64,000 nucleotides of DNA, taken from positions 25,234 to 89,233 of the forward strand of contig SUVA01000002.1 in NCBI GenBank assembly GCA_015062245.1. Direction: 5' to 3'. The stretch comes from Alphaproteobacteria bacterium. GTDB taxonomy: Bacteria; Pseudomonadota; Alphaproteobacteria; CAAHEQ01; UBA3637. Below the pieces are notes generated by a model. The model was not told the DNA's origin, made no database searches, and saw nothing but the letters and a program-made list of their open reading frames with translations. The position numbers and the translations under genes were made by a program. Below, in pieces: positions 14,048 through 33,169 of this stretch (positions within the stretch are counted from its first letter, which is position 1; each line of letters starts with the position of its first letter).

Positions 14048-14115
14048 ATAACATTTTATGTTAAAAATTTTAAAAAGTCAATTTATCTTTATTTGTTTTG
14101 TTTTTGTAAAATGTC

Positions 14116-14144: not shown

Positions 14145-14153
14145 AGGCACATT

Positions 14154-14404: not shown

Positions 14405-14406
14405 AT

Positions 14407-15156: not shown

Positions 15157-15211
15157 GATATACTCCCTTTAGAGCAGTTCTATCACAAATGGTATAAAAA
15201 AGCAATATCAA

Positions 15212-15416: not shown

Positions 15417-15422
15417 AATGGC

Positions 15423-15451
15423 TTGACTTTCCTTATCTTTATATGTAAACT
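15423..15451 (+). promoter_or_regulatory. candidate sigma70 promoter for NUDIX/HAD cassette (TTGACT-17-TAAACT)
   Basis: Located directly after R2; AAGGAG RBS at 15472 and ATG at 15484 follow. Confidence 0.4.
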
Positions 15452-15483
15452 GGTTCTAGATTTTTCTAAAAAAGGAGTTTTAA

Positions 15484-15912
15484 ATGTCTGAAAATACTGT
15501 TTTTGTGGGATGTGGTGTTATTTTGCTTAACTCAAAAGGTCAATTTTTAATGATGAAACGCACCAGTAAACACGGGCAAGGGACTTGGGGCTTACCTGGT
15601 GGGCACATGGAATTTGGTGAAACATTTGAAACAGTGGCTATTCGTGAGGTTTCTGAAGAATTAGGTATTGAAATTCATAATCCGCACGTTTTAGGCGTTA
15701 CCAACAACTTCTTTCCAAATGAAAACAAGCATTCTGTTAGTATTATTTTGATTGCAAGGTTAGAAAATCAAGAACCAAAGAACATGGAACCACATAAATG
15801 TTCAGAATTGCGTTGGTGTGACGATTGGGAACATTTACCGGCTCCTGTTTTTATCCCTTATAATAAGTATATTTCCTTAAAACAAATAAGAGAATATTTT
15901 GAAAGTAAATAG
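15484..15912 (+). CDS. NUDIX hydrolase (cassette 2)
   Basis: NUDIX box GGHMEFGETFETVAIREVSEELGI. Confidence 0.85.
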   Translation: MSENTVFVGCGVILLNSKGQFLMMKRTSKHGQGTWGLPGGHMEFGETFETVAIREVSEELGIEIHNPHVLGVTNNFFPNENKHSVSIILIARLENQEPKNMEPHKCSELRWCDDWEHLPAPVFIPYNKYISLKQIREYFESK

Positions 15913-16615
15913 CCATATTCCGAATTTAAAGACCAAAACACATCTGATTTTTGATTTAGATGGGACCTTGATTGATTCTTTAAATATCTGGAATGTCATT
16001 GATCAGGCTGTTTTAAAAGGCCTAAACATTGTTGTCCCTTTGGATATTCTTCAACAAGAGCATACGATTTTTTTTAAAAAAGAAAATAGCTATATTCATT
16101 ATGCACAATTTTTAATTAAAAATCATCACTTAGAAATTACACCAGAAGAATTTCTGAAGATGCGTTGGCAAATAGCAGATAGCATTTTAACAGAACAAGT
16201 TGATTTTAAAAATGGTGTTGTAAAGATCCTTAAAAAATTAAAAGAACAATATGTACTTATATTAGCAACCAGCTCTACAAAACATATTCTATCGATTTAT
16301 GCACACCAAAATCAAAAAATGGCAAAAAGGTTATGTTTAGAAACTTTCTTTGATATGATATTGACACAGGAGGATATTCCTTTTGGAAAGGGAAAGCCTG
16401 AACCAGATATTTATTTGACTGTTCTGAAAAAATATTCTGTTAAACCTGAAAAATGCCTTATTTTTGAAGATTCATTGGAGGGTGTACAAGCCGCTTATCA
16501 CTCTGGCATAGATGTCATTCATGTAAATGATCCATTTATTCCTTTTGAGGATAAAAAATCAATACAGAAATATACCCCTTATCATTTGAAGAAATGGTCA
16601 GATTTTAAGATATAA
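15899..16615 (+). CDS. HAD-superfamily hydrolase (beta-phosphoglucomutase-like; cassette 2)
   Basis: Motif I LIFDLDGTLIDS; 14-nt overlap with NUDIX gene suggests an operon. Confidence 0.8.
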   Translation: MKVNSHIPNLKTKTHLIFDLDGTLIDSLNIWNVIDQAVLKGLNIVVPLDILQQEHTIFFKKENSYIHYAQFLIKNHHLEITPEEFLKMRWQIADSILTEQVDFKNGVVKILKKLKEQYVLILATSSTKHILSIYAHQNQKMAKRLCLETFFDMILTQEDIPFGKGKPEPDIYLTVLKKYSVKPEKCLIFEDSLEGVQAAYHSGIDVIHVNDPFIPFEDKKSIQKYTPYHLKKWSDFKI

Positions 16616-16625
16616 AATATTTTCT

Positions 16626-16832
16626 GAGCTCGTGAATTGCGCATTCATTCCGACCACTAAACACAAGTCGTCTCAAAAGGCGACTTTTTCTTTATTTTAC
16701 AAGCACTTATAAAAGTTCGAATGTTCAACTGTCAAAATTGGCTATTTTCAGCCATTTACGAACTCTTGAACCAAAAAATCCTTATTTTTCAATACTTGTC
16801 CTCTGAGAGTTCCAAACTACCATCCCAGAAAA
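16626..16832 (+). repeat. cassette repeat R3
   Basis: GAGCTCGTGAATTGCGCATTCATTCCGACCACTAAACACAA + hairpin gtcgtctcaaaaggcgac + conserved blocks. Confidence 0.8.
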
Positions 16833-16900
16833 TAGGTAATATTTTCAAATTTGTTTACAATATTATTGCTATTTTTGAAATAACATAGTATTCTAACCAT

Positions 16901-18562
16901 ATGTTAAGGCCTATAAAAGATTTTTTTATATTACAAATATTAAAAAAGAATAAAACACAGTTACAATTTCTTCTGCTCTTTTTGATGTTCTTCTTTTCTG
17001 TTTTGCAAGTGTATACTGAACCAGTACTTTTTAATGTTTGTTTTCTTTCTTTTTTTGCATTTGTTTGGTTTCTATTAGCGATAAAAAGACAGGTTATTTT
17101 TACTTTATATTTTTTTCTTGTTTTTTCCCCTGGATGCCTGCACTTCGTCTACCAACTTATATTTCGTCATCCAATAGATGATGCATCCATTGAGCAGGTA
17201 TTCATCTCTAATATTGCAATTAGTTTTGCTTTTTTAAAATCTCATCCTATATTGCTATGTTGTATTCCGTTAATTTTACTGCTTTTTGTACTTTTTTCGC
17301 ATATTTCGCATTTAATTGCTTCTCTCCAAATTTCATCCAGTAAGTACATACGTTTTTTAAGTACGTTGATGCTTTTGTGGCTAATAGTATTTTTATTGTT
17401 CTCTCATGGAAGTATATATCGTGTTGTCTTTGACGGATATCTTTCCTATAAAGCCGACTGTGCTTTTGTAGCGGATATAGTTGAAAAAAAACTCAACACT
17501 ACTTTTTCAAATGTAAAAATATCAGAGGATCAAACGGTTATTGTCGTGATAGGGGAATCCGAAACAAGAACGATGTTATCCTTGTATGGATATCAAAAAG
17601 ATACAACACCCCATTTATCTGACTTAAAAGATAAACTGATTGTTTTTTCTGATGTGTTCTCTCCACATTCCCATACAGCGACTGTTTTGGACAAAGCTTT
17701 ATCCCTAAAATCATTTAGTGACACTCCGAATAATTTTGGATCTGTTATTGATTTGTTTTCTCAAGCAGGGTTTGAAGTCTGGTGGCTTTCAACTCCACCT
17801 TTAAGAGACGTATGGTCTGGTTCAACAATGGCTATTTTATCAAATGCTGCACATCATAAATTTTTTCTAAATAAAGGTATATCATGGGATAGACATGACA
17901 TTGACTTATTACCAAAAATCAAAGAAGCAATTCTTCAACCCACTCCCAAAAAATTAATTTTTGTACATTTATTAGGGAGTCATGGAGCATATACGGATAG
18001 ATATCCAGAATCATTACGACGTCTTGATTTGACACCATATGAGAATACTATTTATTCAACAGATTACTTTATGAATGAAATAATCAATTTTTTAGAAAAA
18101 GAAAATATAAAAAACACGAAACTTCTTTATTTTTCGGATCATGGTGATGCACCACAGTGTCAATGTCATACAGAAGCGTTAGGATATCCAGAAATGTTTG
18201 AAGTCCCTTTTTATCTTTGGCTCAGTCCTGATATTAGAAATAAGTTTAAGTTAAATAAAGATATGCTTACAAAACCCTATAATACAGAACATTTGATTCA
18301 CTCGATTGCTGATTTGGCAAAAATTTCATCGGATGAAATTGATATACAAAAAAGCATTTTTAATCAAAATAGGAGAGGATTATATATTATGTTAGATGGT
18401 AAAAAATATGCTATTTCTTCGGATTTAATCTTTGAAGTTTCTCATCCTATAACAAGAGGAAAGGTAGTTGATTTTTCTGAGCATTACTTAAAAATCAAGT
18501 GGTATTCTTCTGGTGAGATAGAAACATGGGAAAATAAAAATTCAATTTGGCAAAAAATATAA
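16901..18562 (+). CDS. sulfatase-family membrane protein, phosphoethanolamine/phosphoglycerol transferase (EptA/OpgB)-like (cassette 3)
   Basis: Five N-terminal TM helices followed by alkaline-phosphatase/sulfatase-fold domain (VIGESETR.., DHGD motifs). Confidence 0.7.
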   Translation: MLRPIKDFFILQILKKNKTQLQFLLLFLMFFFSVLQVYTEPVLFNVCFLSFFAFVWFLLAIKRQVIFTLYFFLVFSPGCLHFVYQLIFRHPIDDASIEQVFISNIAISFAFLKSHPILLCCIPLILLLFVLFSHISHLIASLQISSSKYIRFLSTLMLLWLIVFLLFSHGSIYRVVFDGYLSYKADCAFVADIVEKKLNTTFSNVKISEDQTVIVVIGESETRTMLSLYGYQKDTTPHLSDLKDKLIVFSDVFSPHSHTATVLDKALSLKSFSDTPNNFGSVIDLFSQAGFEVWWLSTPPLRDVWSGSTMAILSNAAHHKFFLNKGISWDRHDIDLLPKIKEAILQPTPKKLIFVHLLGSHGAYTDRYPESLRRLDLTPYENTIYSTDYFMNEIINFLEKENIKNTKLLYFSDHGDAPQCQCHTEALGYPEMFEVPFYLWLSPDIRNKFKLNKDMLTKPYNTEHLIHSIADLAKISSDEIDIQKSIFNQNRRGLYIMLDGKKYAISSDLIFEVSHPITRGKVVDFSEHYLKIKWYSSGEIETWENKNSIWQKI

Positions 18563-18575
18563 ATTTATTTGCTCT

Positions 18576-18783
18576 GAGTTCGTAAATTGCGCATTCACTC
18601 CGACCACTAAACACAAAGCATCAGAAATGGTGCTTTTTTCTTTATCTTACAAGGCCTTGTTCGGGTTCGTATGTTCAACTGTCAAAATCAGCCATTTTCA
18701 ACCATTTACGAACTCTTGAGTCAAAAAATCCTTTGTTTTCAATACCTGTCCCTTGGGAGCCTAAAACATAAATCCCAGAAAAT
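18576..18783 (+). repeat. cassette repeat R4
   Basis: GAGTTCGTAAATTGCGCATTCACTCCGACCACTAAACACAA; hairpin identical to R2 (agcatcagaaatggtgct). Confidence 0.8.
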
Positions 18784-18822
18784 AGACCTAAAAATTTAAT
18801 TTATTTTTCCTTACAAAATATG

Positions 18823-18851
18823 TTGACATTAGCGTGATTTTTTGATTAAAT
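18823..18851 (+). promoter_or_regulatory. candidate sigma70 promoter (TTGACA-17-TTAAAT) for small cassette ORF
   Basis: Consensus -35 and acceptable -10 with 17-nt spacing directly after R4. Confidence 0.4.
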
Positions 18852-18884
18852 GAAATCATTATCAATTTTAGTGAAAGGAAAAAA

Positions 18885-19100
18885 ATGTTTAATAATCGAC
18901 CTCGAGTAAGGGTTGCTTTTTCAAAAAAGTCTATTCAAAAGATAAAAGAAGCAATAGAAAATCTTAACTCTTTGCAACCAGTTTTACCCCTTCCTAAAAA
19001 AGAGTCAACCAGAGAAGAATGGCTAGAAAGACAACATAAAATTTTATCTTATCAACCTCCACGTCCTGTATCTTTTAGGGGTAGACAAAGGGGTGAATAA
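18885..19100 (+). CDS. hypothetical small protein (cassette 4)
   Basis: 71-aa ORF with GGA-rich RBS region, bounded by R4 and partial R5; no homology recognized. Confidence 0.3.
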   Translation: MFNNRPRVRVAFSKKSIQKIKEAIENLNSLQPVLPLPKKESTREEWLERQHKILSYQPPRPVSFRGRQRGE

Positions 19101-19123
19101 TTTTCATGTAAAACGGTTGGACT

Positions 19124-19160
19124 AAGCTCGTAAATTGTACATCCATTCCGACTATTCTTT
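19124..19160 (+). repeat. truncated cassette repeat R5 (tRNA-3'-end-like part only)
   Basis: AAGCTCGTAAATTGTACATCCATTCCGACTATTC aligns to the first 35 nt of R2-R4. Confidence 0.6.
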
Positions 19161-19214
19161 CTAAGAATAATTAAACTTACAGATAAATTCTCTTGAAAAA
19201 AAGAAAGGAATAAA

Positions 19215-19781
19215 ATGAAAATAGAATGGAAAATTGATAAGTTATTAGCACCTTTACCAGCTGCGCTAGTTTCGTGTGGAACGATGAAAAAAGCGAACGT
19301 TTTAACTGTTTCGTGGACAGGTTTTTTAAACTCTGAACCGTTGATGACCTATGTTGCTATTCGACCTTCTCGCTATTCGTATCGTTTAATTAAACGTGGC
19401 AAAAGTTTTGTTATTAATATTCCTAATAAAAAATTATTACACTGCGTAGATGTATGCGGTCTTAAAAGTGGTAAAGATACAGATAAATTTGCTGAATGTG
19501 GCATAACAGCCGTTGAAAGTAAGATGGTTTCTGCGCCGTCTATTTTAGAGTGTCCTATTTCTATAGAGTGTGAAGTTTGTGATATTTTAAAAAATCCATC
19601 ACATGATGCTTTTATTGCAAAAGTGAAAACTATTACTATAGACGATCAATATATGGAGGGTCGCAAATTTAATTTTGTTAAGGCCGGTTTGATAATGTCG
19701 GCACATCGACAATACTTTGAAGTGGGTGATTTTTTAGCTGATACTTTCTATACAGCACAAGAAAATTCTAAGAGTAAATAA
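19215..19781 (+). CDS. flavin reductase-like (NADH:FMN oxidoreductase, HpaC/RutF family) protein (cassette 5)
   Basis: Flavin_Reduct domain pattern (LVSCGT...NVLTVSW...P...VAIRPSRYS). Confidence 0.75.
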   Translation: MKIEWKIDKLLAPLPAALVSCGTMKKANVLTVSWTGFLNSEPLMTYVAIRPSRYSYRLIKRGKSFVINIPNKKLLHCVDVCGLKSGKDTDKFAECGITAVESKMVSAPSILECPISIECEVCDILKNPSHDAFIAKVKTITIDDQYMEGRKFNFVKAGLIMSAHRQYFEVGDFLADTFYTAQENSKSK

Positions 19782-19886
19782 TATAATTGAAAATCTATGT
19801 CAACTATGAAATAAGCTTTTGTAATTTGCGCAAAAGTAAATCTTTGGATTTTACAAAGTATCAATTGGCGTATGGGAAGAAAGTTT

Positions 19887-20339
19887 TTACTTTTTTTGCT
19901 TATTTCTTTCGGAAAGAGAGTTTTCGTATTTTTCAAAATTTTTAAAAAGAAATATTGTTGGGAAAATCAAAAGAAATATACCCAAAATGATAAGAGGTAA
20001 GGCAAATTTTTCCGGAAACGTTTTTATATGGGAAATGAAATAAAAAAAGATTGTTAAACTGCCCAAAAAAGTTAAAATTTCAGCTGCCAGGTAAAAGTTT
20101 CTGCGACGAATTTCTTCCCATGATTTCCCGAATAAAAGCGGAGTATGACGATATGTGGCAAGGTTTCTGCTCATTAAAGAGAAAAAGAGAAAAATTGGAT
20201 AAAAAGGAATGAATATCCAACCAAAAATATAAATTATTTTATCCGCCCAATTTTTTTTAATAATTTTTTCCCGATGTGTATTAAAAAACGGACCTATAAG
20301 CCAAAGCAAATATATTAGTATTAATAATAAAAACTTCAT
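19887..20339 (-). CDS. hypothetical membrane protein
   Basis: Four predicted TM segments; 4-nt overlap with upstream small ORF, likely co-transcribed downstream of gyrA. Confidence 0.4.
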   Translation of the reverse strand: MKFLLLILIYLLWLIGPFFNTHREKIIKKNWADKIIYIFGWIFIPFYPIFLFFSLMSRNLATYRHTPLLFGKSWEEIRRRNFYLAAEILTFLGSLTIFFYFISHIKTFPEKFALPLIILGIFLLIFPTIFLFKNFEKYENSLSERNKQKK

Positions 20340-20543: not shown

Positions 20544-23315
20544 TTATGATTCCTCGCTTGTTGTGTTTTCTGTTATAATTTCTTGTTCAGATTCTTCATC
20601 ACTTTCCATATAGGGCACCGTTGTGGCGGATACCACTTTTTCTTTTTTGCCATCCAAACGGAAAACAATCACGCCCATGGTCGCACGTCCCGCAATACGA
20701 ATATCATTCACACGGGTGCGGATAATCTGACCGCCGTCTGTGACCAACATTAAATCATCATCTTTGTTGACCGGCATTGATGCAATCACATGGGCCGCAC
20801 GTTTGCCTTCATCCGTTTTGATGTTGGTGACGCCTTGTGTCCCGCGTGAGGTAATACGGTATTCATAGGCGCTGGTGCGTTTACCATAACCGGCACTGGT
20901 TAAAGTCAAGATGAATTCTTCATCATTGGCCATCTTTTCAAATTCTTCGGCCGTTAAAGTGGTATTTGTTGTGCTTTCCACTTCCACTTTATCATCTTCG
21001 GTGGCCAAACCTTCGGCACGGCGACGGGCAGCAGCTTCTTTCAAATAAGCATCACGCTTATCAATTTCGGCTTTGGCATGTTTCAACACGCTCATAGACA
21101 TCACTTCATCATCGCCGACTAATTTCATCCCACGCACACCGGTGGAAGCCCGTGAGGCAAAGACGCGCACGTCATCCACGGGGAAGCGCACGCATTTGCC
21201 GTTTTTGGCGCACAACAGGATATCCTGATTGTCATCACAAATGGCCACACCGACCAACTTGTCGCCTTCGTCCAGCTTCATGGCGATTTTACCGTTTTGA
21301 TTGACACGCCAAAAATCGGACAGCTTATTACGGCGAACGGTTCCTTTGCTGGTGGCGAACATAACGGTCAATTTATCGCATTCTTCTTCTGTTTCGGGTA
21401 AAGTCATAATGGTTGAAATTGTTTCGCCCTGTTGCAATGGCAATAAATTGATTAAAGCCTTACCCAAGCTTTGCGGGCTTCCTTCGGGTAAACGATAGGT
21501 CTTCATCTTATACACAATACCACGGGTTGAAAAGAACAACAACGGACTGTGCGTGCATGCCACAAACAAATTGGTAACGGTATCTTCATCACGGGTGGAC
21601 ATACCCGAACGACCTTTTCCGCCACGGTGTTGGGCACGATAGGTATCCAATTTCACCCGTTTGATATAGCCGGTATTTGTTATGGTTACGACCATCTGTT
21701 CACGGGGAATCAGATTTTCCATATCTTCTTCAAATTCGGCATCTTCAATGGTTGTACGGCGTTCTTCGGGGAATTGTTCTTTAACCTTTAACAATTCTTC
21801 ACGAATGATGGCCAAGATTTTTTCACGGCTGGACAATACGGACAAAAAGCCTTTAATCAAAGCGGCCAATTCGCCCACTTCGGCATGAATTTTATCACGT
21901 TCCAAACCGGTTAAACGGCTGAGCTTTAATTCCAAAATAGCTTTGGCTTGGGCTTCACTCATCATATAAACGCCGTTTTCCACTTTGCGATCGGGTTCGT
22001 CAATCAATTCAATTAAAGCTTCTACGTCCTTGGCGGCCCAATGCTCACGCATCAATTGTTCACGGGCTGTGTTGGGATCAGGGGCAGTTTTAATCATTTC
22101 CACCACTTTATCCAAGTTTGCCACGGCAATGGCCAAGCCGACCAAGACATGAGCCCTATCACGGGCTTTGTTTAATTCAAAGGCAGTACGACGACGCACG
22201 ACTTCTTCACGGAAATCCAAAAAGGCCGAAATGATTTGCTTTAAGTTCATCAATTCGGGGCGTCCGTTATTTAACGCCAACATATTCATACCAAAGCTGG
22301 TTTGCAATGGTGTATATTTATACAACTGATTTAAAACGACATCAGGGAAGGCATCTTTTTTCAATTCCACCACCACACGTACACCCTGACGGTCGGATTC
22401 ATCACGTAAATCGGAAATGCCGTCAATGACTTTGTCTTTGACCAATTGGGCAATTTTCATAATCATTTCGGCTTTGTTGACCTGATAGGGGATTTCGGTA
22501 ATGATAATGGCTGTTTTGTCTTTTTTGATTTCTTCAATGGAACAACGTCCCCGCATGATGACGGAACCACGCCCTGTTTCATAGGCGCTTCTGGCACCGC
22601 CACGGCCCAAAATAACGCCACCGGTTGGGAAATCGGGGGCAGGCACATACCCCATCAATTCATCAATTGTAATTTCGGGGTTATCAATCGTGGCCACACA
22701 GGCACCCAAAACTTCCGACATATTATGCGGGGGCATATTGGTGGCCATACCCACAGCAATACCGCCCGAACCGTTGACCAAGATATTCGGGAAACGAGCC
22801 GGCAACACAGTCGGTTCTTCACACGATTCATCATAGTTAGGCATAAAATCAACGGTATCACGATCAATATCTTCCAACAACCAATGAGCCGATTGGGCCA
22901 ATCTGGCTTCGGTATAACGCATGGCGGCGGCCTTATCCCCGTCCATAGAACCGAAGTTCCCCTGAGGGCTGATAAGCGGAACACGCATTGAAAAGTCCTG
23001 AGCCATACGCACCATAGCTTCGTAAATTGAGCTGTCACCATGGGGGTGATATTTACCCATCACATCACCGACGATACGGGCGGATTTGCGGAAAGGCTTG
23101 TTGTATTCATAACCGTTTTCGTGCATAGAAAACAAAATACGGCGATGCACCGGTTTTAAACCATCCCGCACATCGGGCAGGGCACGTGCCACAATCACGC
23201 TCATGGCATAATCCAAATAGGATTTACGCATTTCTTCTTCAATGCCTGTTTGTAAAATATCGCTGGCAACAACACCCGTTGTCAATGCCGTTTGTTCATT
23301 TAATTCTTCGGTCAT
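20544..23315 (-). CDS. gyrA: DNA gyrase subunit A
   Basis: Canonical GyrA N-terminus ([23 protein letters not shown], active-site Tyr region) and C-terminal beta-pinwheel repeats; acidic tail. Confidence 0.97.
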
Positions 23316-23736
23316 TTTTACCTCACTTTAAAAAACGTTTTTATATATGCTCCAACCTAGCATTTTCCAAACAAAAATGCAAGCAAAAAATAGAGAATTT
23401 TATCTATAACTTAAATGGTTTATTTAAAAATTAGTATCCCATCTGTGTACACCATTCAGGGGTATATGAATAATTAGCAGGATAATAGTTTATAGAAGCA
23501 TTGTGCCAATATCCAGAAGCGATCTACACTTGAGGTGCAAAGAAGAACCGTTTGGATATTTTGGGATAAAAGATACAGAACCTAAATGAAAATCAATTAC
23601 ACCATGGAATATCAGCATTAGCTATAATTTAAGCCAATTTCATTTCTAAACTTTTCAGTATCTTACTTCAAAAAAGTTTTTACATATGTTCTAGCTTTTT
23701 CCTCATCAAGCTAATTTTTTTGATGTAAAAATAAAA

Positions 23737-25941
23737 CTAGTTCATCCAACTGCAATCGTTTACCTTGTTTACAATGGACATATCTGTGCTTCCCGCAGAA
23801 CCGCAATAATACAGGTTTTGAATTGTACCAGTGTAAAAACCTTGACAATATGCTTTTTTACTTCCTTGCAGATAGGCATTGGTTATGTTACCCGGTGTGG
23901 AAGCTATTATACAATTACATTCTCCACAACTGGCAAGACCATACTCTCCCCCATAAGCAATCAAAGTGCCAATTGTTGCTTCCCCATACACATTGTATAA
24001 TCCACCATTTTTAATCTCTATTTTAGAAGCCTGTAAAGAACCATCGTTTTGCAAGTTTCCTTTTTCTATTTCTATATTTGTTGCTTCCAATGTTTTGACA
24101 GTACTGTATATGCTGTTTGAATTGAGTATACATGTTTCAGGGGTGAAAACTCCACCTGCTGCTGTTATTGGCCCTGAAAAAATTGAACATGTTATATTTT
24201 TTGCAGAGAGTTTTCCTGAATTGTCTAATCCTTTGGCAGCTTTTACATTTATTTTATTTGTTGCAGTTATTGTTCCTGTGTTTCTTATTGCATAAAGATC
24301 TTTGGATAGATTTCCTGTTTCAAAACTTTCTTCTTCCCCCACTACAGTGATATTGTCGGAATTGATTGTTCCGTAATTTGTAATTCCAACGTTAATCATT
24401 TGAGCACTTGCATCTATATCGGAAATATTTAAAGTTCCTCTGTTAATTATTGAAGCATTCGTGGTAAGAGAATCCGAATAAATTGTTCCGTAGTTTTGAA
24501 CAGAATAAGCATTGTCGTTATTACCATCACTTCTTATAAGAATACTATTGACTTTTAAGGTTTTTCCTTCTGACACTGATACCTGCAGAACAGATTGATC
24601 GGAAAATGATAATTTGCATTCGGAAATGTCTAAATCTTTTTCGACGTTTAATCTGCCGTTATATTTTATGGTTTCATTATCTTTCATTAAAAATGTTCCG
24701 TTGGTCCCCGAACTTTCTTTGTCGAGAACATAACCAGCATCAAGCATTTTCAAACAACATTGATTTTCACCGCATCCATCGTCTTCAACGCAATTATTTC
24801 CATCCAGTTTATAACCTTTTTCACATTTTATCGGCAACCCGCTTTCGTTGCACTCCGTCACATTTGCACCACAAGGCGTGCAGGTATTTCCATTTAAATA
24901 ATAGCCAGTTTGACAGGCTGTTGGTTTGCCCGTTGAATCACAGCTGAGCACACCTGTACCACAGGATGTGCAAGAATTTCCATTTTTATAATAGCCGGCT
25001 TGGCAGGTAAAGCCATTTGAAGTACAACTAGCCACACCTGTTGTCGGACATTGAACACAAGAATTACCGCTTAAATAATAACCACTTTTACAAGAGGTTG
25101 GTTTGCCCGTTGAATCACAGCTGGCCACACCTGTGCCACAGGATGTGCAAGAATTTCCATTTTTATAATAGCCGGCTTGGCAGGTAAAGCCATTTGAAGT
25201 ACAACTAGCCACACCTGTTGTCGGACATTGAACACAGGAATTTCCATTTAAATAATACCCCTCTTCACATTCTGTCGGATTGCCATTTTCATCACAAGTA
25301 ACGACACCTGTGCCACAGGAAGTGCAAGTATTACCGTTTTTATAATATCCTGATTCGCATTCAAATCCATCGTCTTTGCAATCCATACTGTTCTCTGGGC
25401 ATTCAATACAATTACCATTTGACAAAAAATACCCGTCAACACAACCTATCGGATTAAAATCACTGTCGCAAACGGCGTTCGCCGGACATTCCCGAGGTTG
25501 ACTATCTTTATCCGGTGTTGTTGATGAATCGGCCTCAGGAAACTTTAAAAAATAAAAGGTAACATTGCTGGTTGATTCACATTCGTCTTTTGTATATCCG
25601 GCACCTATATCAAATTCAGTCAAAACCCCACACAAAGAAGAACTATTCGTTTTTACATCAATCCAAAACCAATCTTTGTTTTTATCACCAACCCCATTTT
25701 CAATCGTAAATATCGTATCGTAGGGACCTTTTTCCGTTCGTGGCATCCGTTCACCGGCATGCGCATTCATAGAAAGTAAGCGAGAATTTTTAATAGCTGT
25801 CAATCTTTGGGCCAATGTATGGGTTTGGCTTTCCAATCTGGCCTCTTGCCACAGACGAATACCAGCCACCGTAATCAATGCAATAATAACCAATACGGAT
25901 AAAACTTCTAATATTGAACGGCCAAATTGTGCTTTTTTCAT
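23737..25941 (-). CDS. type IV pilin-like N-terminus / Cys-rich GYY-CxxC repeat / beta-helix-like large surface protein
   Basis: GGAG RBS; leader MKKAQFG|RSILEVLSVLVIIALITVAG with G(-1) and E(+5); 59-aa tandem Cys-rich repeats (CxxC..GYYxNGNxC); C-terminal NxGT(I/L)-type repeats; paralog of 30944..33169. Confidence 0.75.
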   Translation of the reverse strand: MKKAQFGRSILEVLSVLVIIALITVAGIRLWQEARLESQTHTLAQRLTAIKNSRLLSMNAHAGERMPRTEKGPYDTIFTIENGVGDKNKDWFWIDVKTNSSSLCGVLTEFDIGAGYTKDECESTSNVTFYFLKFPEADSSTTPDKDSQPRECPANAVCDSDFNPIGCVDGYFLSNGNCIECPENSMDCKDDGFECESGYYKNGNTCTSCGTGVVTCDENGNPTECEEGYYLNGNSCVQCPTTGVASCTSNGFTCQAGYYKNGNSCTSCGTGVASCDSTGKPTSCKSGYYLSGNSCVQCPTTGVASCTSNGFTCQAGYYKNGNSCTSCGTGVLSCDSTGKPTACQTGYYLNGNTCTPCGANVTECNESGLPIKCEKGYKLDGNNCVEDDGCGENQCCLKMLDAGYVLDKESSGTNGTFLMKDNETIKYNGRLNVEKDLDISECKLSFSDQSVLQVSVSEGKTLKVNSILIRSDGNNDNAYSVQNYGTIYSDSLTTNASIINRGTLNISDIDASAQMINVGITNYGTINSDNITVVGEEESFETGNLSKDLYAIRNTGTITATNKINVKAAKGLDNSGKLSAKNITCSIFSGPITAAGGVFTPETCILNSNSIYSTVKTLEATNIEIEKGNLQNDGSLQASKIEIKNGGLYNVYGEATIGTLIAYGGEYGLASCGECNCIIASTPGNITNAYLQGSKKAYCQGFYTGTIQNLYYCGSAGSTDMSIVNKVNDCSWMN
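24958..25312. repeat. near-identical 177-bp tandem repeat (2 copies; diverged copies flank to ~24840-25340) inside pilin-like gene
   Basis: acaggatgtgcaagaatttccatttttataatagccggcttggcaggtaaagcc... recurs at 24961 and 25138 (period 177 bp = 59 aa). Confidence 0.85.
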
Positions 25942-25992
25942 AAAAAATTCTCCCTTGTTTTTTTTATTGTAAAAAATTTCAATCCTTTTTGC

Positions 25993-26026
25993 AATAAAAA
26001 AAACGCCTCTTGAATAAAAAGGGCGT
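25993..26026 (-). terminator. rho-independent terminator downstream of infB
   Basis: acgcc..ggcgt hairpin with T-run on minus strand. Confidence 0.45.
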
Positions 26027-26045
26027 TTTTTGTTTTGATTTGTTT

Positions 26046-28445
26046 TTATTTTGCCACGAATTTAACGGCAGTTTTTTCAATTTCAAACGATTCAATGACA
26101 TCACCGATTTTAATATCGTCATATTTGGCCAATTTAACACCGCATTCAAAGCTTTCTTTGACCTCTTTGACATCATCCTTCATACGCTTTAATTGATCCA
26201 AATCACCCGTAAAGATAACAACGTTATCACGCAACAATCTGACCTTGGAACCACGTTTAATCAAACCGTCCGTTACCATACAGCCGGCAATTTTGCCCAC
26301 TTTGGAAATGGAAATAACCTGACGGATTTCGGCATGACCCAAAATCTTTTCGTGTTCTTCGGGTGTTAGCAAACCTTCCACAGCCTTTTTCATATCATCA
26401 GCCACATCATAGATGATGGAATAATAACGAATATCCACACCATCACGTTTGGCCATATCACGGGCGGCCGGATTGGCACGAACGTTAAAGCCGACAATAA
26501 TGGCATGGCTGGCACGGGCCAAAGTGATATCTGTTTCATTGATGGCACCCACGGCCGCATGCATAATATTGACTTTGACTTCGTCATTTTTGATTTTGGA
26601 TAAAATACCCACCAAAGCTTCCACAGAACCTTGCACATCGGCTTTAATCAAAACGGGCACTTCTTTCATTTCGCCGGCTTTAATTTTGGCCAACAAACCT
26701 TCGGTACCGCCCAAGCGTTTAATGTTCAACAATTCACGGGCTTTGCGACCACGATAGGCCGAAATTTCACGGGCGGTATTTTCATCTTTTACCACCACAA
26801 AATCATCACCGGCCGATGGTGTACCGTTCAAACCGACCACTTCCACCGGTTGAGCCGGAACAGCCGTTGTCAGCTTTTCCTCTTTGGCGTTTGTTAAAGA
26901 ACGTACACGTCCCCATTGTTGCCCTGTTACAAAAATATCACCGATATGTAAAGTGCCTGTGCGCATCAAGACGGTGGCCACAGATCCACGTCCTTTATCC
27001 ATACGGGCTTCCACCACGATACCTTCGGCCGGTCCCACCTGCGGGGCTTTTAAATCCAACATTTCGGCCTGTAATAAGATGGCTTCTACCAATTTATCCA
27101 AATTCAATCTTTGTTTGGCGGAAACTTCCACTTCCAATACATCACCGCCCATGGATTCAACGGCAATACCGTGTTGCAATAAATCGGTGCGCACACGTTG
27201 CGGATTGGCTCCCGGTACATCAATTTTGTTGATGGCCACAATGACGGGGACTTTGGCTGCTTGGGCATGGTGAATAGCTTCCACGGTTTGGGGCATCACA
27301 CTATCATTGGCGGCCACCACCAAAACCACGATATCTGTGATTTGGGCGCCACGGGCACGCATGGCAGTAAAAGCCTCATGCCCCGGTGTATCAATAAAGG
27401 TAATCCTTTGTTGATTGGCCAAAACAACCTGATAAGCACCGATATGCTGTGTAATACCACCGGCTTCACCTGTGGCCACATGTGTGGAACGCAAAGCATC
27501 CAATAAAGATGTTTTACCATGATCCACGTGTCCCATAACCGTTACAACGGGCGGACGGGGCAGGTATTGGTCTTGGGGGATTTCTTCACGTTTTAAAACA
27601 TTTTCCACATCAGATTCGGCCACACGCTGTTTAACACGGTGTCCCATTTCGGTAACAACCAATTCGGCCGTATCGGCATCAATGGTTTGTGTGATGGTTA
27701 CCATCATGCCCATTTTCATCAAAGTTTTTACAACATCAGCGCCTTTTTCGGCCATACGCACAGCCAATTCCTGAACGGTAATTGTTTCGGGAATAATCAC
27801 ATCATGAATCACTTTTTCGGCTGGTCCTTTTTGGGCGTTTAAAAATTTTTGATATTGTTTTTCACGGGCCCGTTTGATGGATGCCAAAGACCGTCTGTGG
27901 CGACGTGGACCGTTTTCATCATCACCGTCATCATCATCAACGGGTTGATATTGTTTATAGGCGTTTAAGTTCACTTTTCCCTGACGTTTTTGTTCAAAGG
28001 ATGATTTTTTATTCATCATTTGTTCAAATTCTTTTTGTTTTTTAGGGGATAATTCGTCTTCTTTTTCGTTTGAATTATTGCGTTTTCTATCGCTGTAATT
28101 TTTGGCTGATTCAATGCTTTCTTGTTGGGCCTGTTTTTGTGCCTGTTCGGCCTGACGTTTGGCTTCTGCCAAAGCCTTTCTTTCGGCTTCTTGACGGGCT
28201 TTTTCTTCTTTTGCCTTACGTTCCATTTCCAATTGTTTGGCATGTTCGGCCACTTTTTGGGCTTCTTGCAATAATTTTAATTTTTGTGCAGCATTTTCGG
28301 ACAATTGAGCCGGTTTTTGTTCGGTATTGATAACACGGCGTTGTTTGCGAACCTCCACCTGAACGCCGGTGCGTGTGCCGGCATTGGGGCGTAAAGTGCC
28401 GCCCAAAGAAAGTGTTTTTCCGGATAAAGTCAATTTTTCACTCAT
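26046..28445 (-). CDS. infB: translation initiation factor IF-2
   Basis: G-domain motifs ([21 protein letters not shown]); start moved to MSEKLTL ATG at 28445 behind AAGGAGG RBS. Confidence 0.95.
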
Positions 28446-28779
28446 GGATACCTCCTTGATTAAACAGGATTTGTTTTTCGGGATAATGCACCAATTTGGT
28501 TTTGACATCATCCATTAAATTTTCGGGGATTTTAACCGTCCCCTTGGCGGCTTTAAAAAAGATACGTTTTTCAATTGCTTTTGCTAAACAATCACAGTTG
28601 GCATGCAACCACATCCCACGGCCGGGTAGAACTTCCCGATCGTCAAAACGCACAACCTGACCCGGTCGCCCCACGAATCTTAACATTTGTTCACGTGGGG
28701 CAATCGTTTTGCATACAAAACAGGTGCGTGTTCCGACAACCGTTTTGGGATTTTTATTTCTGTGATTGTGTCTCTTCAC
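28438..28779 (-). CDS. ylxR: YlxR/DUF448 family RNA-binding protein (start uncertain)
   Basis: RTCFVCK...GRGMWLHA motif of YlxR family between nusA and infB. Confidence 0.65.
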
Positions 28780-30268
28780 TAAACCAATGCTCCCGCGCTT
28801 TCATAATCATCTCATTTGCTTGTTTTTCCGTCATATCACCGGCAATTTCCATTAATTCATCACCGGCTAAATCGGCCAAATCATCCAAGCATTTGATACC
28901 TTTGTCGCCTAATTTAACCAATAATTCGTTGGTCATGCCTTCAAATTCGGTTAAATCTTTGGCCAAATTCAATTCTTTCAAACGTTCGGCAATTTGGGCT
29001 TCTTTGGCAACCAAATAGGCCTTGGCACGATTTTGTAATTCTGTGGCCAATCCTTCGTCAAAACCTTCAATGTCTGTCAATTCTTCCAAAGCAATATAGG
29101 CAATATCTTCAACAGATGCGAAACCTTCTTGAATCAACAAATGCGCCATCATATCATCAATGTCCAAAGCCGACATAAACAATTCCACACGTTCTTTTGT
29201 TTCGTTTTGACGGTGTTCGGCTTCTTGGGCTTCGGTCATCATGTCAATATGCCAGCCGGTCAATTGGCTGACCAAGCGGATATTTTGACCACGGCGACCG
29301 ATGGCCAAAGACAATTGATCTTCATTCATCACCACTTCCACGCTTTTGCTGTCTTCATCAATCACAATTTTTAACACTTCGTTGGGGGCCAAAGCATTGA
29401 TGATAAAGGTGGCAGGGTCAGCTGACCAAGTAACCACATCAATTTTTTCACCCTGTAATTCGGCCGTAACAGCCTGAACACGAATACCACGCATACCGAT
29501 ACAAGCACCACGGGCATCAATGGTTGAATCAGATGCATAAACGGCGATTTTGGAACGGGAACCGGCATCACGGGATACAGCTTTAATTTCAATACTGCCA
29601 TCATAAACTTCGGGGACTTCGGCTTTAAACAAAGCAGTCACAAAATCCGGATGAGAACGGGTTAAGAAAACCTGCGGTCCTTTAATTTCGGGACGCACAT
29701 CCAACACCAAGGCACGAATGCGGTCGCCCACACGATAAGATTCACGGGGAATCAGTTCATCACGACGCAATAATGTTTCCACATGCCCGACTTCTACAAT
29801 CAGGTTGCCGGCTTCCACACGTTTGACCAAGCCGTGAACGATTTGACCTTTTTTGTCTTTCATGGCTTCATATTGTTGATTACGTTCGGCATCACGCACT
29901 TTTTGCATAATCACCTGACGGGCGGTTAAAGCGGCGATACGGCCAAAATCCATGGGGGGCAAAGCATCAATGATTTCTTCACCCAATTTTGCAAACTTGT
30001 TGTTTTTGCGGGCTTCGGCCAAAGAAATTTGTTTGAATTCATCATCCACATTTTCCACGATGGTCAAAACACGTACCATTTCAATGGAACCGTCTGTCGG
30101 ATCAATGTGCGTGCGAATATCATATTCAGGACCGTATTTTGTACGACCAGCTTTGGAAATACCTTCTTCCATGGCGTGCAGAACAGCCAATTTATCAATC
30201 CCTTTTTCATGGGCCAACACATCGGCCATTTGAATCAGTTCTGGTCTGGGTAAAGTTGCATTTTGCAT
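28754..30268 (-). CDS. nusA: transcription termination/antitermination factor NusA
   Basis: NusA N-terminal, S1 and tandem KH domains (GRRGQNIRL), C-terminal acidic repeats. Confidence 0.95.
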   Translation of the reverse strand: MQNATLPRPELIQMADVLAHEKGIDKLAVLHAMEEGISKAGRTKYGPEYDIRTHIDPTDGSIEMVRVLTIVENVDDEFKQISLAEARKNNKFAKLGEEIIDALPPMDFGRIAALTARQVIMQKVRDAERNQQYEAMKDKKGQIVHGLVKRVEAGNLIVEVGHVETLLRRDELIPRESYRVGDRIRALVLDVRPEIKGPQVFLTRSHPDFVTALFKAEVPEVYDGSIEIKAVSRDAGSRSKIAVYASDSTIDARGACIGMRGIRVQAVTAELQGEKIDVVTWSADPATFIINALAPNEVLKIVIDEDSKSVEVVMNEDQLSLAIGRRGQNIRLVSQLTGWHIDMMTEAQEAEHRQNETKERVELFMSALDIDDMMAHLLIQEGFASVEDIAYIALEELTDIEGFDEGLATELQNRAKAYLVAKEAQIAERLKELNLAKDLTEFEGMTNELLVKLGDKGIKCLDDLADLAGDELMEIAGDMTEKQANEMIMKAREHWFSEETQSQK

Positions 30269-30270
30269 TT

Positions 30271-30756
30271 TTATTTTGCTCCTTTTTTGTTGTTAAAAAT
30301 TTCTTCGGGGAATGTCAGTTTTGCCTTGTTGACATCATCAAAAGGCAAATCAATGATTTTTCCCTCAAAGTCCAGTTGAATGAAGCCGTCTTTAAAGCCT
30401 TTCAGAGTTCCTTTAAAACGACGGCGTCCGTTGATTTCGTGATTTAATTCAATTTTGGCCTGTTCGCCGATAAAACGGGTGTAATCATCGGCTTTAACCA
30501 AAGGTCTGTCAATACCGGGGGATGAAACTTCCAACACCCATTTACCGGCAAACGGATCAGCGATATCCAATAAAGCGCTGGCTGTATGACTGATACGTGA
30601 ACAATCATCCAAAGTCATTTCTTGCCTGTCTTTGCGTTCGGCCATAATCTGCAAAGTTTGCATAGCACTTCCTTGAACGGATATGCGAACGATATCATAG
30701 CCCATATCGTTCAGGGCTGGTTCCACGGCATTTTGTACTTTTGTAATCAATTCCAT
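30271..30756 (-). CDS. rimP: ribosome maturation factor RimP
   Basis: RimP family (LEVSSPGIDRPL); start moved to MELITKV ATG at 30756 behind AAGGAA. Confidence 0.88.
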   Translation of the reverse strand: MELITKVQNAVEPALNDMGYDIVRISVQGSAMQTLQIMAERKDRQEMTLDDCSRISHTASALLDIADPFAGKWVLEVSSPGIDRPLVKADDYTRFIGEQAKIELNHEINGRRRFKGTLKGFKDGFIQLDFEGKIIDLPFDDVNKAKLTFPEEIFNNKKGAK

Positions 30757-30943
30757 TTTTTCGTTCCTTTTGTTAAAAAAGTGGGGCTTTTTCAAGTCCC
30801 ACTCTCTAAAAAACACAGAAAGTATGGCTATTATATGTAAAAAAATGATGTAAGTCAAGCGTTTTTTTTAAAAAAAGTAGTTGCATTTTAGCAAAAAATG
30901 TTTTAAGCTCTGAAAAAAAGGGTTTTCTTATGGAGGTTTTCTT

Positions 30944-33169
30944 ATGAAAGAACACAGCGAAAATTTTAGACTTGTTTTAAAAATTACGGTTATTTCGTTT
31001 TTGATTCTTTTTTTTGCTGGCAGTATTTATTTGTGGCGTGCGACACATTTAAAATCCGAAGCACGTGCAATTTCACGCTATTTAATCAGTATTAAGACAA
31101 CTCGTGAAGAAACAATGTCATCGCATGCCGATGAAAAATTTACCCAAACAGAAAGCGGTCCTTATGGTACAACCTTCACTGTTGAAAACGGTATCGGGAA
31201 AAAGAACAAGGATTTTTTCTGGATTAGTACTGAGGTCTACAGTTCTTCTTTGTGTGAGTATTTGGCAAAAGTAAAACTTGGAGCATTAAAAGTAGACAAA
31301 TCAAAGTGTGATACCTCAAATGAAGTTGTTTTCTATTTTGCAAAATTTAAAAGTAAAACGAAAGGTTCACCGGATATGGACAGTCAACCTAAAGGATGTC
31401 CCAAAAATGCCGAATGCGATGATCAGGACAATATTTTAAGTTGTAATGAAGGTTTTTATTTGTCCGATGACAAATGTTTAAAATGTCCTGCAAACAGCAT
31501 CAATTGTGAATATGAAAGTTTTGAATGTCAGGTTGGTTTTTATCGTTCGCAAGGGGATTGTGTGCGTTGTGGAACAGGGGTTATGGCCTGTAATGACAAT
31601 GGTGAACCGACAGAATGTATGACTGATTTTTACCCAATGGATGGCAGATGCGTTCCCTGTTCTGAATTGGGTCCCGGTTTTTGTACAAATTCTTCCGGCG
31701 CTTCTTTGCCGGCGTCTTCGTCTGTCTCTTCAACTTATAAACCGGTTCCGCCTCCGACTCGTCCTGTTGAAAAACCGATAAAAACAAAAACGGAAACATT
31801 AAAAACACCGGAATGTCAGGATGGATATTATCGTAAAGGCGGTTCTTGCGTTGCCTGTCCTTCTTATTATAAAACCTGCGATAAAAACACAGGCTACTTT
31901 ACCTGTCAAGACGGCTATGTGAAAAATGCCGACAGAATGGCTTGTGTTAAAGAAGAAAGCTGTTCTTCAAAGGCAGACAATATCCGTTTGTCTGATTCTG
32001 GGATACGTGTTTCCGTTGAAGGTGATACAATTGTTTTGTCAAATAATCAAACTTCTCAACCGGCTGTTATTTCTCAGGATTTGGATTTTTCGGGATGTAA
32101 TGTCAAAATAAATACAGCCTCTGAAACGCATTTGTTGGGAAATATTTATGCCAAAAATTTGACGATATCTTCACCGGGGAATAGAATTTATACCTACCGT
32201 TCATCAGATGTTGCGCCGACAATATCTTCCGGTAAAAAGATTGTTTGTTCGGGGGATTTAAAAATAAACGGTTCATTTTATTCTGATCGTTCGGTGGATG
32301 TGGCCGGTAATTTGATTATTACGGAATTTATGCAAATGACATCTTCTAATGTTCATATTGCGGGTTATGTATCCGGTGATAGTATATCTACGGCAAAACA
32401 GGTGAAAACCCCCATTACGGTGGAAGGCTATGTTTCCGTTTCGGATTTAGTGCATAACGTAAAAAGCGGAGATTATATCAATGCATCTGTTATTTCGGCA
32501 GGGGAAGCGGAAAATAACATTATGGTTGAACAAATTGCGTTGAATGGAAAATTGGTTTCTAAAAACGGGGATATTATTGTTACCGACAGCCGAAAAAAAG
32601 ATAAAAACCAAGATAATTTGTTCACCGTGCATGTTGATTTCGGTTCTGAACTTTCTGTTTTGAACGGCAGTATGAGTATTGTATCCGGTTTGGATGTTTT
32701 GAATTTGGGCAATATCCACATTGCACGTAATTTGGATGTGGCTATCAGTGGTATTTTCCGCAACTGGAATCAGTTGTATGTTGGTGGTTCTATGACGGCA
32801 AATACAGACATTCGCTTGGCCGGTATCACGCATCCTAATGGAAATAAAATCAATTCACAAACATTGGTTTGTGGTTCTGTTTTCGGTTCAGGTAAAATTC
32901 AATTGAATACCGTTGCTTCTTTGGCGGTGGGTTCAAGTATTTCAACATCTATGAAAACACAGGTTATTAAATATACAGGCGCCTGTGAGCAAGGTGAAGG
33001 AAAACTTTCGGCCGGACGAGCTGCTTACTATGTTCAAAATTATGAAACATATTTAAATAATGGTCAATGTCTTTTGAATAAAAAATCAGAAGAAGGAAGT
33101 TTTTCTGCAAACACCCAAGATAATTGTCAAAATATTTCTTGGTGTCAAAAAAATCGTTATTGCAACTAG
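30944..33169 (+). CDS. pilin-derived (degenerate prepilin motif) Cys-rich / beta-helix-like large surface protein, paralog of 23737..25941
   Basis: GGAGG RBS; N-terminus SENFRLVLKITVISFLILFFAGSIYLW aligns to the pilin leader of its paralog but G(-1) is F and E(+5) is K; shared head domain (ESGPYGTTFTVENGIGKKNKDFFWI), CxxC/GFY repeats, Pro-rich linker, NxG-type repeats. Confidence 0.72.
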   Translation: MKEHSENFRLVLKITVISFLILFFAGSIYLWRATHLKSEARAISRYLISIKTTREETMSSHADEKFTQTESGPYGTTFTVENGIGKKNKDFFWISTEVYSSSLCEYLAKVKLGALKVDKSKCDTSNEVVFYFAKFKSKTKGSPDMDSQPKGCPKNAECDDQDNILSCNEGFYLSDDKCLKCPANSINCEYESFECQVGFYRSQGDCVRCGTGVMACNDNGEPTECMTDFYPMDGRCVPCSELGPGFCTNSSGASLPASSSVSSTYKPVPPPTRPVEKPIKTKTETLKTPECQDGYYRKGGSCVACPSYYKTCDKNTGYFTCQDGYVKNADRMACVKEESCSSKADNIRLSDSGIRVSVEGDTIVLSNNQTSQPAVISQDLDFSGCNVKINTASETHLLGNIYAKNLTISSPGNRIYTYRSSDVAPTISSGKKIVCSGDLKINGSFYSDRSVDVAGNLIITEFMQMTSSNVHIAGYVSGDSISTAKQVKTPITVEGYVSVSDLVHNVKSGDYINASVISAGEAENNIMVEQIALNGKLVSKNGDIIVTDSRKKDKNQDNLFTVHVDFGSELSVLNGSMSIVSGLDVLNLGNIHIARNLDVAISGIFRNWNQLYVGGSMTANTDIRLAGITHPNGNKINSQTLVCGSVFGSGKIQLNTVASLAVGSSISTSMKTQVIKYTGACEQGEGKLSAGRAAYYVQNYETYLNNGQCLLNKKSEEGSFSANTQDNCQNISWCQKNRYCN

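Follow-up and report, generated by a model that had tools for sequence, protein, structure and literature searches.

We analysed a 64-kb stretch of DNA from an Alphaproteobacteria bacterium (contig SUVA01000002.1 of assembly GCA_015062245.1; the whole stretch is called the window below) and found that it carries two large related genes, one hypervariable and one conserved. Gene A (23737..25941, minus strand, 734 aa), coding for an A-type modular pilin-like protein, and its B-type paralogue, gene B (30944..33169, plus strand, 741 aa), lie at the two sides of the rimP-nusA-ylxR-infB operon (26046..30858, minus strand), which was identified with Pfam on identical contigs and serves here as context only. 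The reading that we favour, and hold to be moderately probable, is that A and B are ancient paralogues and belong to a family of large modular pilin-like proteins that is lineage-restricted, in which A-type members would act as variable adhesins and B as their partner. This small family of uncultured Alphaproteobacteria is uncharacterised; modular pilin-like proteins are an already known kind. An earlier note, written from the sequence alone, had reported paralogous genes on opposed strands bracketing the operon, and so it proved: both open reading frames (ORFs) are present at these coordinates and their products align at BLASTP E = 2e-73. Throughout, L labels refer to contigs or loci from the database and P labels to database proteins.

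Two modular paralogues

The similarity between A and B extends over the first ~330 residues, with 38% identity; the heads themselves are 39% identical (alignment A6). Both proteins carry the head motif GPY[DG]T.FT[IV]ENG[IV]G.KNKD.FWI at residue 72, SSSLC at residue 100, and CxxC and G[YF][YF] repeats, with C..C counted eight times in A and four times in B. The earlier note had listed all these shared features correctly and had credited both proteins with beta-helix-like NxGT(I/L) repeats as well. The NxGT[IL] motif is in fact confined to A, with four copies (shuffle mean 0.05) against none in B, and a beta-helix fold is not established, the Foldseek matches against the PDB having E values of 0.017 or higher. 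No BLASTP alignment was obtained between the C-terminal halves of A and B, and with hhalign only the first 58 columns of the A-type and B-type C-terminal modules align (probability 42%, E = 2.7e-4), with a shared DLDxSxCxL start. A tblastn search of the window with A and B returned no further head paralogue. In a neighbour-joining tree of heads, B, P0044, P0045 and P0046 form a clade apart from the A clade, and the duplication therefore predates these species.

The signal region of A (residues 1-29; 25855..25941, minus strand) is class-III-like, with the leader MKKAQFG, then RSILE and a hydrophobic segment (RSILEVLSVLVIIALITVAGI, Glu at +5); the intact prepilin site that had been claimed for A, MKKAQFG/RSILE (the slash marks the putative cleavage point), can be read directly. 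The head module (residues 1-150; 25492..25941, minus strand) is modelled by AlphaFold2 (AF2) as a long N-terminal helix and a small beta-sheet. A Cys-rich stalk of CxxC/GYY beta-hairpin repeats follows (residues 151-395; 24757..25491, minus strand), in which Tandem Repeats Finder detected a tandem repeat with a period of 177 nt, 2.6 copies and 86% matches (24886..25347, minus strand). The C-terminal beta-rich module (residues 396-734; 23740..24756, minus strand) holds the four NxGT[IL] motifs and ends in the Cys/Trp tip DCSWMN. It is all-beta in the AF2 model, at a predicted local distance difference test score (pLDDT) of 30-90, and its Foldseek matches, HxuA (E = 0.019), FHA and HpmA (E ~0.5) and tapirin (query-normalised template modelling score, TMq, 0.20), are all weaker than 1e-3. 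The A family members are P0001-P0007.

In B, the head module (residues 1-150; 30944..31393, plus strand; alignment A6) is followed by Cys-rich repeats (31394..31963, plus strand), which, as judged from the translation, BLASTP and the Cys profile, are interrupted by a Ser/Pro/Thr-rich linker at residues ~241-290. The C-terminal module (residues 341-741; 31964..33166, plus strand) has no NxGT[IL] and ends in NISWCQKNRYCN and a stop codon.

Allele replacement at gene A

Looking up exact proteins yielded contigs from independent samples: L004-L010 agree with the window at 100% identity and L020 and L021 at ~99.2%, and L012 has flanks with 99-99.8% identity. A collection of metagenome contigs that does not include these JGI contigs gave no match to either a protein pattern or an exact 35-nt sequence. 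Three alleles occupy the slot between infB and gyrA (20544..23315, minus strand), namely that of the window, P0001, which is 59 aa shorter, and P0004, which has a different C-terminal module. L020 and L021 carry the window allele of A less one 177-nt repeat unit. When L012, which encodes P0004, is compared with the window, nusA, ylxR and infB are 99.8%, 99.6% and 99.0% identical, the infB-A intergenic region 88.5%, the A head 93.6% and the A repeats 86.4% (up to window position 25248); the next ~1.7 kb of L012 and ~1.86 kb of the window, comprising the A C-terminal module and most of the spacer, share no similarity, and the region upstream of gyrA is again 98.7% identical. P0004 has another Cys-rich insert and another beta-rich module than A. 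For this strain pair the synonymous divergence (dS) is 0.147 in the A head and 0.044 in infB, and this ~3-fold difference within the same two strains points to import of the A allele. Judging from these sequences, gene A is a replacement hot spot, whose whole alleles and 3' modules are swapped between strains with flanks at least 99% identical. It appears to evolve by replacement of the 3' module and by gain and loss of repeats, while B stays conserved.

Conservation of gene B

Gene B is matched exactly by database protein P0043 and has full-length orthologues in P0044 (73% identity), P0045 (50%) and P0046 (48%). Its ratio of nonsynonymous to synonymous divergence (dN/dS) is 0.12-0.15, alike in head, repeats and C-terminal module, and in the C-terminal module the mean column identity across four orthologues is 73%. 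The N-terminus, MKEHSENF-RLVLK, has Phe at -1 and Lys at +5. The earlier note was right that this segment is without Gly(-1) and Glu(+5); its interpretation as a decaying site does not hold, because Lys(+5) is fixed in all four B-clade members and purifying selection acts throughout. Position -1 is Gly in P0045 and P0046 and Phe in B and P0044. The N-terminus of B is thus an old fixed state, kept under purifying selection along with the full length of the protein.

Between B and P0044 (in L019) dS reaches 1.24, about three times the value for nusA (0.41) and above that for rimP (0.74) in the same genome pair. The raised value could stem from constrained codon usage in nusA or from a B allele that is older or was imported.

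Relocation of gene A

In five related lineages both paralogues stand in tandem at one side of the operon, in the order rimP, B, A-type gene, DUF4167; B and the A-type gene are 9-14 nt apart. L001 has rimP, a B-orthologue, P0005 and DUF4167; in L019, an A-type gene begins 14 nt after P0044; L016 runs from a B-type end through P0003 to DUF4167, L017 and L018 from a B-type end through P0006 to DUF4167, and L013 from P0028 to DUF4167. In the species of the window, B directly abuts the DUF4167 promoter region (DUF4167, acpS and spoT follow 3' of B), and the slot between infB and gyrA is occupied by the A-type gene in inverted orientation. The comparison with relatives that the earlier note had proposed therefore indicates that the tandem pair is ancestral and the bracket derived, the A-type gene having moved to the infB-gyrA slot specifically in this species. 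P0002, an A-type copy located beside rpsU in L011, has the promoter region (72 of 79 nt) and the head (95.8% nucleotide identity) in common with A, and 3' of it lie 40 nt of the DUF4167 promoter (90% identity, E = 8e-10). Since P0002 carries the promoter and head of A together with this piece, A-type genes must have been copied or moved along with their flanks. No mobile-element gene or long repeat was found at the relocation junctions.

Family genes also adjoin core information-processing operons at unrelated loci, namely secE-nusG-rplK, rpsU-proS, sufBCD and rimP/infB (L001 1076..2792; L002 10001..13327; L011 5853..7991; L014 10001..10600). The slot downstream of infB in L001 holds zeta-toxin and APH genes in place of an A-type gene.

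The opposed orientation of A and B, their homologous 5' part of 330 aa and the past change of side and orientation of the A-type gene would all suit the proposal, made in the earlier note, that the inverted paralogues are recombination substrates, forming a switch that flips the rimP-infB segment or converts one copy by the other. This proposal fails at several points. At the DNA level the best segments between A and B, of 145 and 160 nt, have identities of 67.6% and 65.6% respectively, no exact match exceeds 16 nt and megablast gives no match, a divergence too great for homologous recombination. Wherever the junctions were spanned, that is in 11 contigs (L004-L010, L012, L020, L021 and the window) representing at least 4 strains, there was a single order and orientation, gyrA(-), A(-), infB to rimP(-), B(+), DUF4167(+), assemblies reporting the majority form. 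No chimeric A/B heads occur among the 11 contigs, and no recombinase, invertase or integrase gene was found in the window. Moreover, a simple inversion between the heads cannot turn the tandem layout into the bracket. We accordingly rejected the switch as next to impossible; with identity this low and the orientation invariant in the contigs, the pair is, by the criterion that the earlier note had set, an ordinary old duplication. A switch around an essential operon would have been the more striking claim. The operon has no functional tie to the paralogues and their position around it is incidental.

Relics downstream of gene A

The spacer from the stop codon of A to the start codon of gyrA (23316..23736) measures 421 bp and has stop codons in all frames and no long ORF. 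The earlier note had suspected a decayed relic here, and we found orphan 3' relics next to the gyrA upstream region. Relic 1 (23593..23628, minus strand) reads IIANADIPWCN before a stop codon and resembles the C-terminal tip of P0003 and P0004 (LIPNTDIPWCSE, then a stop); the match is weak (tblastn E of 0.002-0.02; 86% nucleotide identity over 22 nt to L012 5655..5676, E = 0.016). Relic 2 (23431..23550, minus strand) reads RFFFAPQV, an in-frame stop, IASGYWHNASINYYPANYSYTPEWCTQMGY and a terminal stop, and corresponds to the C-terminal tip of a P0028-type module. Positions 23493..23431 are 85.7% identical over 63 nt to the last 20 codons and the stop codon of P0028 in L013 (E = 4e-15) and 86% identical over 57 nt to an orphan tip in L017 (E = 1e-12), and tblastn gives E = 2.8e-10 and 2.3e-12. 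Just upstream of gyrA lies a 3'-flank element containing TTTGGAAAATGC (23353..23421, minus strand) that travels with A-type genes: present once in the window, it is 77% identical (E = 2e-9) to the stretch that follows P0005 in L001 (13132..13204), and an 18-nt piece of it is also found downstream of P0002 in L011. The relocated A-type gene thus brought along pieces of its former 3' end and flank.

Further orphan tips follow P0005 in L001 (13205..13388, ending in PSWCTTNGYSCGN and a stop) and P0006 in L017 (~4074..4130, ending in YSYTPEWCTQMGY and a stop), and displaced 3' tips thus pile up downstream of A-type genes as orphans. In A, B, P0003/P0004, P0028 and the orphan tips alike, the beta-rich modules all end, before the stop codon, in a short Trp-Cys tip, as in DCSWMN, NISWCQKNRYCN, DIPWCSE, TPEWCTQMGY and PSWCTTNGYSCGN, and these tips are the portions that survive as orphans; a disulfide lock, a sorting signal and a recombination anchor are possible roles for them.

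Step-wise displacement of 3' ends is known at cdiA and rhs loci (PMC6336857), and a conserved N-terminus, non-homologous C-termini in near-identical strains and 3' remnants downstream, as at those loci, would also be expected if A were a polymorphic-toxin-like effector (CdiA/Rhs/MafB) with a swappable C-terminal toxin and the orphans were displaced toxin ends. However, no immunity-like ORF follows A, where the spacer has stops in every frame, and neither Pfam nor NCBIfam detected toxin, two-partner secretion (TPS), Rhs, PAAR or pretoxin domains. The modules found as alternatives are large and beta-rich or Cys-rich instead of toxins of 100-200 aa, and the orphans have just 11-40 codons, so that we consider a toxin very improbable. 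Only slightly better placed, and still improbable, is the view that an uncharacterised secreted protein underwent an ordinary duplication long ago and that its neighbourhood and variation are insignificant. This view agrees with a duplication that predates speciation and with family genes scattered among housekeeping genes, but leaves unexplained the replacement of alleles within 99%-identical flanks, the threefold dS excess, the variation in repeat number and the recurrence of orphan tips in three lineages.

A family with a prepilin-like signal

A profile of the head, searched against 1.84 billion representative proteins, gave 100 matches, 45 of them below 1e-10, with the head always N-terminal. 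Total lengths range from ~100 to 2356 aa, with extensions beyond the head of up to ~2200 aa. We examined 99 representatives, made up of 93 profile matches and six family members, after setting aside three multi-stretch matches. The consensus [EQ]-S-G/R-[ST]-h-h-E-h-h is present in 93 of the 99; every one of these 93 has Gly(-1) and Glu(+5), 86 have Arg(+1), 92 have Ser or Thr at +2, and leader length runs from 5 to 74 residues. Of the remaining six, four are truncated at the N-terminus. The only named family member is from an Alphaproteobacteria metagenome-assembled genome (MAG), and a scan of genome contigs with a profile from a narrower alignment matched only an already-known MAG.

Set against the way in which class III signal peptides and modular pilins are defined (PMC8179133), the family signal fits class III save for the residue at +1. 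A has the hydrophilic leader ending in Gly and the hydrophobic tract with Glu(+5), and B, with Phe at -1 and Lys at +5, lies outside the definition. A also has the layout of a modular pilin, in that a Cys-rich stalk and then a beta-rich module come after the head, on condition that the head is a genuine pilin module. The AF2 head model, built from 11 sequences, has a pLDDT of 90 and a predicted template modelling score of 0.77, with a helix at residues 4-61 and a five-stranded sheet (68-71, 77-82, 91-97, 116-120 and 126-132). In the full-length model of A, a beta-hairpin ladder spans residues 156-386 (pLDDT ~80), and the beta-rich C-terminus is of mixed confidence. Matches to PpdD, GspH, N_methyl and TIGR02532 and to a Geobacter pilin came up repeatedly and were weak.

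Several results weigh against a pilin-like nature. The curated prepilin models PF07963 (N_methyl) and TIGR02532 match neither A nor B; relatives score 14.2-16.8 bits against a threshold of 21.2 for PF07963 and 12.7-13.7 against 16.3 for TIGR02532, and A reaches only a PpdD-like match of 16.9 bits. The residue at +1 is Arg, where the models expect the canonical Phe, Met or Leu. The AF2 alignments are shallow, with 11-12 sequences, and Foldseek against the PDB gave no match below E = 1e-3 for either the head or the whole model. The leading head matches are ARPC2, which ranks above pilins, and the Clostridioides difficile minor pilin PilW (TMq 0.44-0.48), and those of the whole model are TPS-type beta-helices, R-spondin furin repeats and tapirin; a PDB sequence search with the head returned only the Geobacter pilin, at E = 0.3-1.1. 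The window encodes no prepilin peptidase, extension ATPase, platform protein or secretin, and no filament machinery lies within 10 kb on either side of the family genes in L001, L002 and L011-L019. With Phe at -1, B of the window cannot be a prepilin-peptidase substrate. Finally, the fold of the C-terminal module is not established, and neither, as a consequence, is any adhesin role.

No family threshold of Pfam or NCBIfam was passed by A or B; PF03302 (Giardia VSP), whose cut-off is 31.4 bits, scored 18.5 for A and 9.0 for B. Searched with both collections, the larger window ORFs, including those at the right end, gave no type IV pilus, type II secretion system (T2SS) or Tad genes. A Sec-signal protein of 413 aa encoded beside secA (48439..49680, plus strand) matches the GspC HR domain at E = 0.0037, with 16.9 bits against a cut-off of 101.6. 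This match, the only T2SS-like hint in the window, is probably due to chance. Outside the family, the A stalk matches VSP-, TNFR- and ephrin-receptor-like repeat proteins (P0008-P0042), including proteins of Entamoeba and Paramecium and many metagenome proteins, and the Cys-rich repeat may have been taken over from protist surface proteins or may mimic them.

Several of these results would be accommodated if the proteins were not pilins at all, but inner-membrane or periplasmic proteins held by a type II signal anchor, whose N-terminal helix merely looks like a class III signal, with Arg(+1) and Glu(+5) pairing within the helix and neither cleavage nor a filament. No filament machinery is near the family genes examined, the prepilin hidden Markov models (HMMs) stay below threshold, no structural match to pilins reaches significance, Arg(+1) is nearly invariant, and B, without Gly(-1) and Glu(+5), is nevertheless under purifying selection. 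Against a plain anchor, Gly(-1) and Glu(+5) are present in all but two complete N-termini while the leader varies between 5 and 74 residues, and this constancy beside a leader of variable length argues for a processing site. In addition, the modelled ~55-residue helix with a small sheet would correspond to the lollipop layout of pilins, and a disulfide-rich stalk of 700-2300 aa with strain-variable tips makes little sense in a diderm periplasm. We regard the signal anchor as a serious possibility, if a minority one.

Other features of the window

A motif scan of the window found two more G/RSxxE genes besides A. The third pilin-like gene, with G/RSMVE (44396..45712, plus strand), has a (CA)9 tract at 44440..44457 within its leader codons. 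These codons read LYTHTHTQ and stand upstream of the G/RS site, and the tract is a candidate slipped-strand switch for phase variation. The real start of this gene is the ATG at 44396; the TTG that was listed as its start, at 44333, forms the -35 box of a promoter, TTGACA-17-TATAGT. L011 retains a remnant of the promoter, ATG and (CA)n of this gene at 2152..2277. The fourth, also with G/RSMVE (58150..59289, minus strand, 379 aa), reads KRSQKG/RSMVEMLGVLAIIGVLS, has a Cys-rich part and stays below threshold for N_methyl and TIGR02532. Its product ends in a module of ~110 aa with the pattern WWSA..WC..G...ALCQE, which occurs twice in a Cys-rich protein with a Sec signal (425 aa; 9493..10770, minus strand) and also terminates P0002, P0006 and P0007. 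The module has no Pfam or PDB-sequence match. A C-type-lectin/DUF1566 identity had been considered for it and was dropped, being unsupported by Pfam.

Gene A follows infB on the same strand and yet is a transcription unit of its own, since an intrinsic terminator after infB (25991..26031, minus strand; hairpin and U8, RNA fold -12.5 kcal/mol, z -3.63) separates it from the operon and is followed by its own sigma-70-type promoter, TTGCAA-17-TACAAT (25966..25994, minus strand; promoter scan), an AAGGGAG ribosome-binding site and the ATG. The ORF list overextends infB (26046..28511, 821 aa, overlapping ylxR), which is called with 799 aa on identical contigs, and rimP (30271..30858, 195 aa from a TTG), called there with 161 aa. 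With this shorter rimP, which probably starts at the ATG at 30756, the divergent promoter region between rimP and B (30757..30943) measures ~187 nt and not 85 nt. The promoter scan placed a TTGACT-17-TATAAT site in it (30858..30830, minus strand).

Two islands of low GC content (14000..20000 and 54000..56000; 30-32% against ~40%) encode a methyltransferase, a HAD hydrolase, a sulfatase-family protein and a 953-aa fusion of a family 2 glycosyltransferase with a pyruvyl-transferase (53282..56143). The genes probably serve surface polysaccharides and may have been acquired.

A model for the family and its meaning

We propose that the proteins consist of a carrier, with a short hydrophilic leader ending in Gly, R-[ST]-x-x-E, ~20 hydrophobic residues and a ~55-residue helix on a beta-sheet head, onto which a disulfide-rich beta-hairpin stalk resembling TNFR, furin and VSP repeats and then a beta-rich module with a Trp-Cys tip would have been grafted. 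A-type proteins would be cleaved after Gly by a prepilin-type peptidase and displayed as variable adhesins on a type-4-filament-like structure or at its tip. Because no assembly genes lie in the window or near the family genes examined, cleavage, filament incorporation and adhesion are inferences. In type 4 filaments the subunit that caps the tip complex is one without Glu5 (PMC10191384). It is from these caps, and from the tight adjacency of B to the A-type gene, that the idea of a partner derives: B, lacking Glu5, may be a non-polymerising partner, acting as a GspK/PilK-like cap or, where it also lacks Gly(-1), as in the window, as a membrane-anchored form.

A more far-reaching version would make the G/R[ST]xxE proteins an undescribed type-4-filament-like display branch in uncultured host-associated Alphaproteobacteria. 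A dedicated peptidase would process subunits with Arg(+1), B would prime or cap the filament, the hypervariable A, with its protist-like Cys-rich stalk, would exchange tip modules by 3' displacement in the manner of polymorphic toxin loci and some paralogues would be switched by (CA)n tracts, all serving antigenic or adhesive variation for life on a eukaryotic host or inside a gut. As a whole we judge this rather unlikely.

If our favoured reading of A and B as modular pilin-like paralogues is true, very large proteins with a near-invariant Arg(+1), which current HMMs miss, would broaden the notion of a class III signal. Displacement of 3' modules with orphan remnants would then also shape adhesin-like genes, beyond toxin systems. 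In annotation, ~100 protein clusters labelled hypothetical could receive a common description.

Comparison with known systems

Set beside invertible segments, A and B differ in having no near-identical repeats, no recombinase gene and no second orientation. In the orphan modules of cdiA and rhs (PMC6336857), as at the A locus, a new 3' module stands behind a conserved 5' part, strain-specific alleles sit in conserved flanks and what is left of earlier 3' ends collects downstream, in 5'-to-3' order. Unlike those systems, the A locus has no toxin/immunity pairs. Its orphans are relics and not a usable cassette store, since they are short, contain stops and have no homology arm to the expressed gene.

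The CxxC and G-Y-Y periodicity of A and its AF2 hairpin ladder recall the Giardia VSP (PF03302), TNFR/ELAPOR and furin-like/R-spondin Fu repeats of eukaryotes. A differs from these in its VSP score (18.5 against 31.4 bits), in Foldseek E values of 0.28 or worse to R-spondin Fu1-Fu2, and in the bacterial pilin-like head to which its stalk is fused.

With the caps GspK and PilK-PilX (PMC10191384), the B clade shares the absence of Glu5, Lys(+5) being present in 4 of 4 members, and B stands directly upstream of a Glu5-bearing partner in five lineages. On the other hand, B has no GspK-type alpha-domain and no NCBIfam or Pfam match to GspK or PilX; B of the window and that of L019 have Phe(-1), which makes cleavage unlikely, and B is a 740-aa protein with its own stalk and beta-rich module.

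Modular type IV pilins, such as PilB and PilC of Streptococcus sanguinis, CofB of enterotoxigenic Escherichia coli and the Thermus thermophilus ComZ with its beta-solenoid (PMC8179133), differ from our family in several respects: the family has Arg(+1), misses the HMM thresholds, reaches 700-2300 aa and has a long disulfide-rich stalk, and its genes lie amid housekeeping genes and not in a pil, com or gsp cluster, with no machinery found near those examined. What the family has in common with modular pilins is a pilin-type carrier bearing bulky C-terminal modules, and a module content that varies among relatives.

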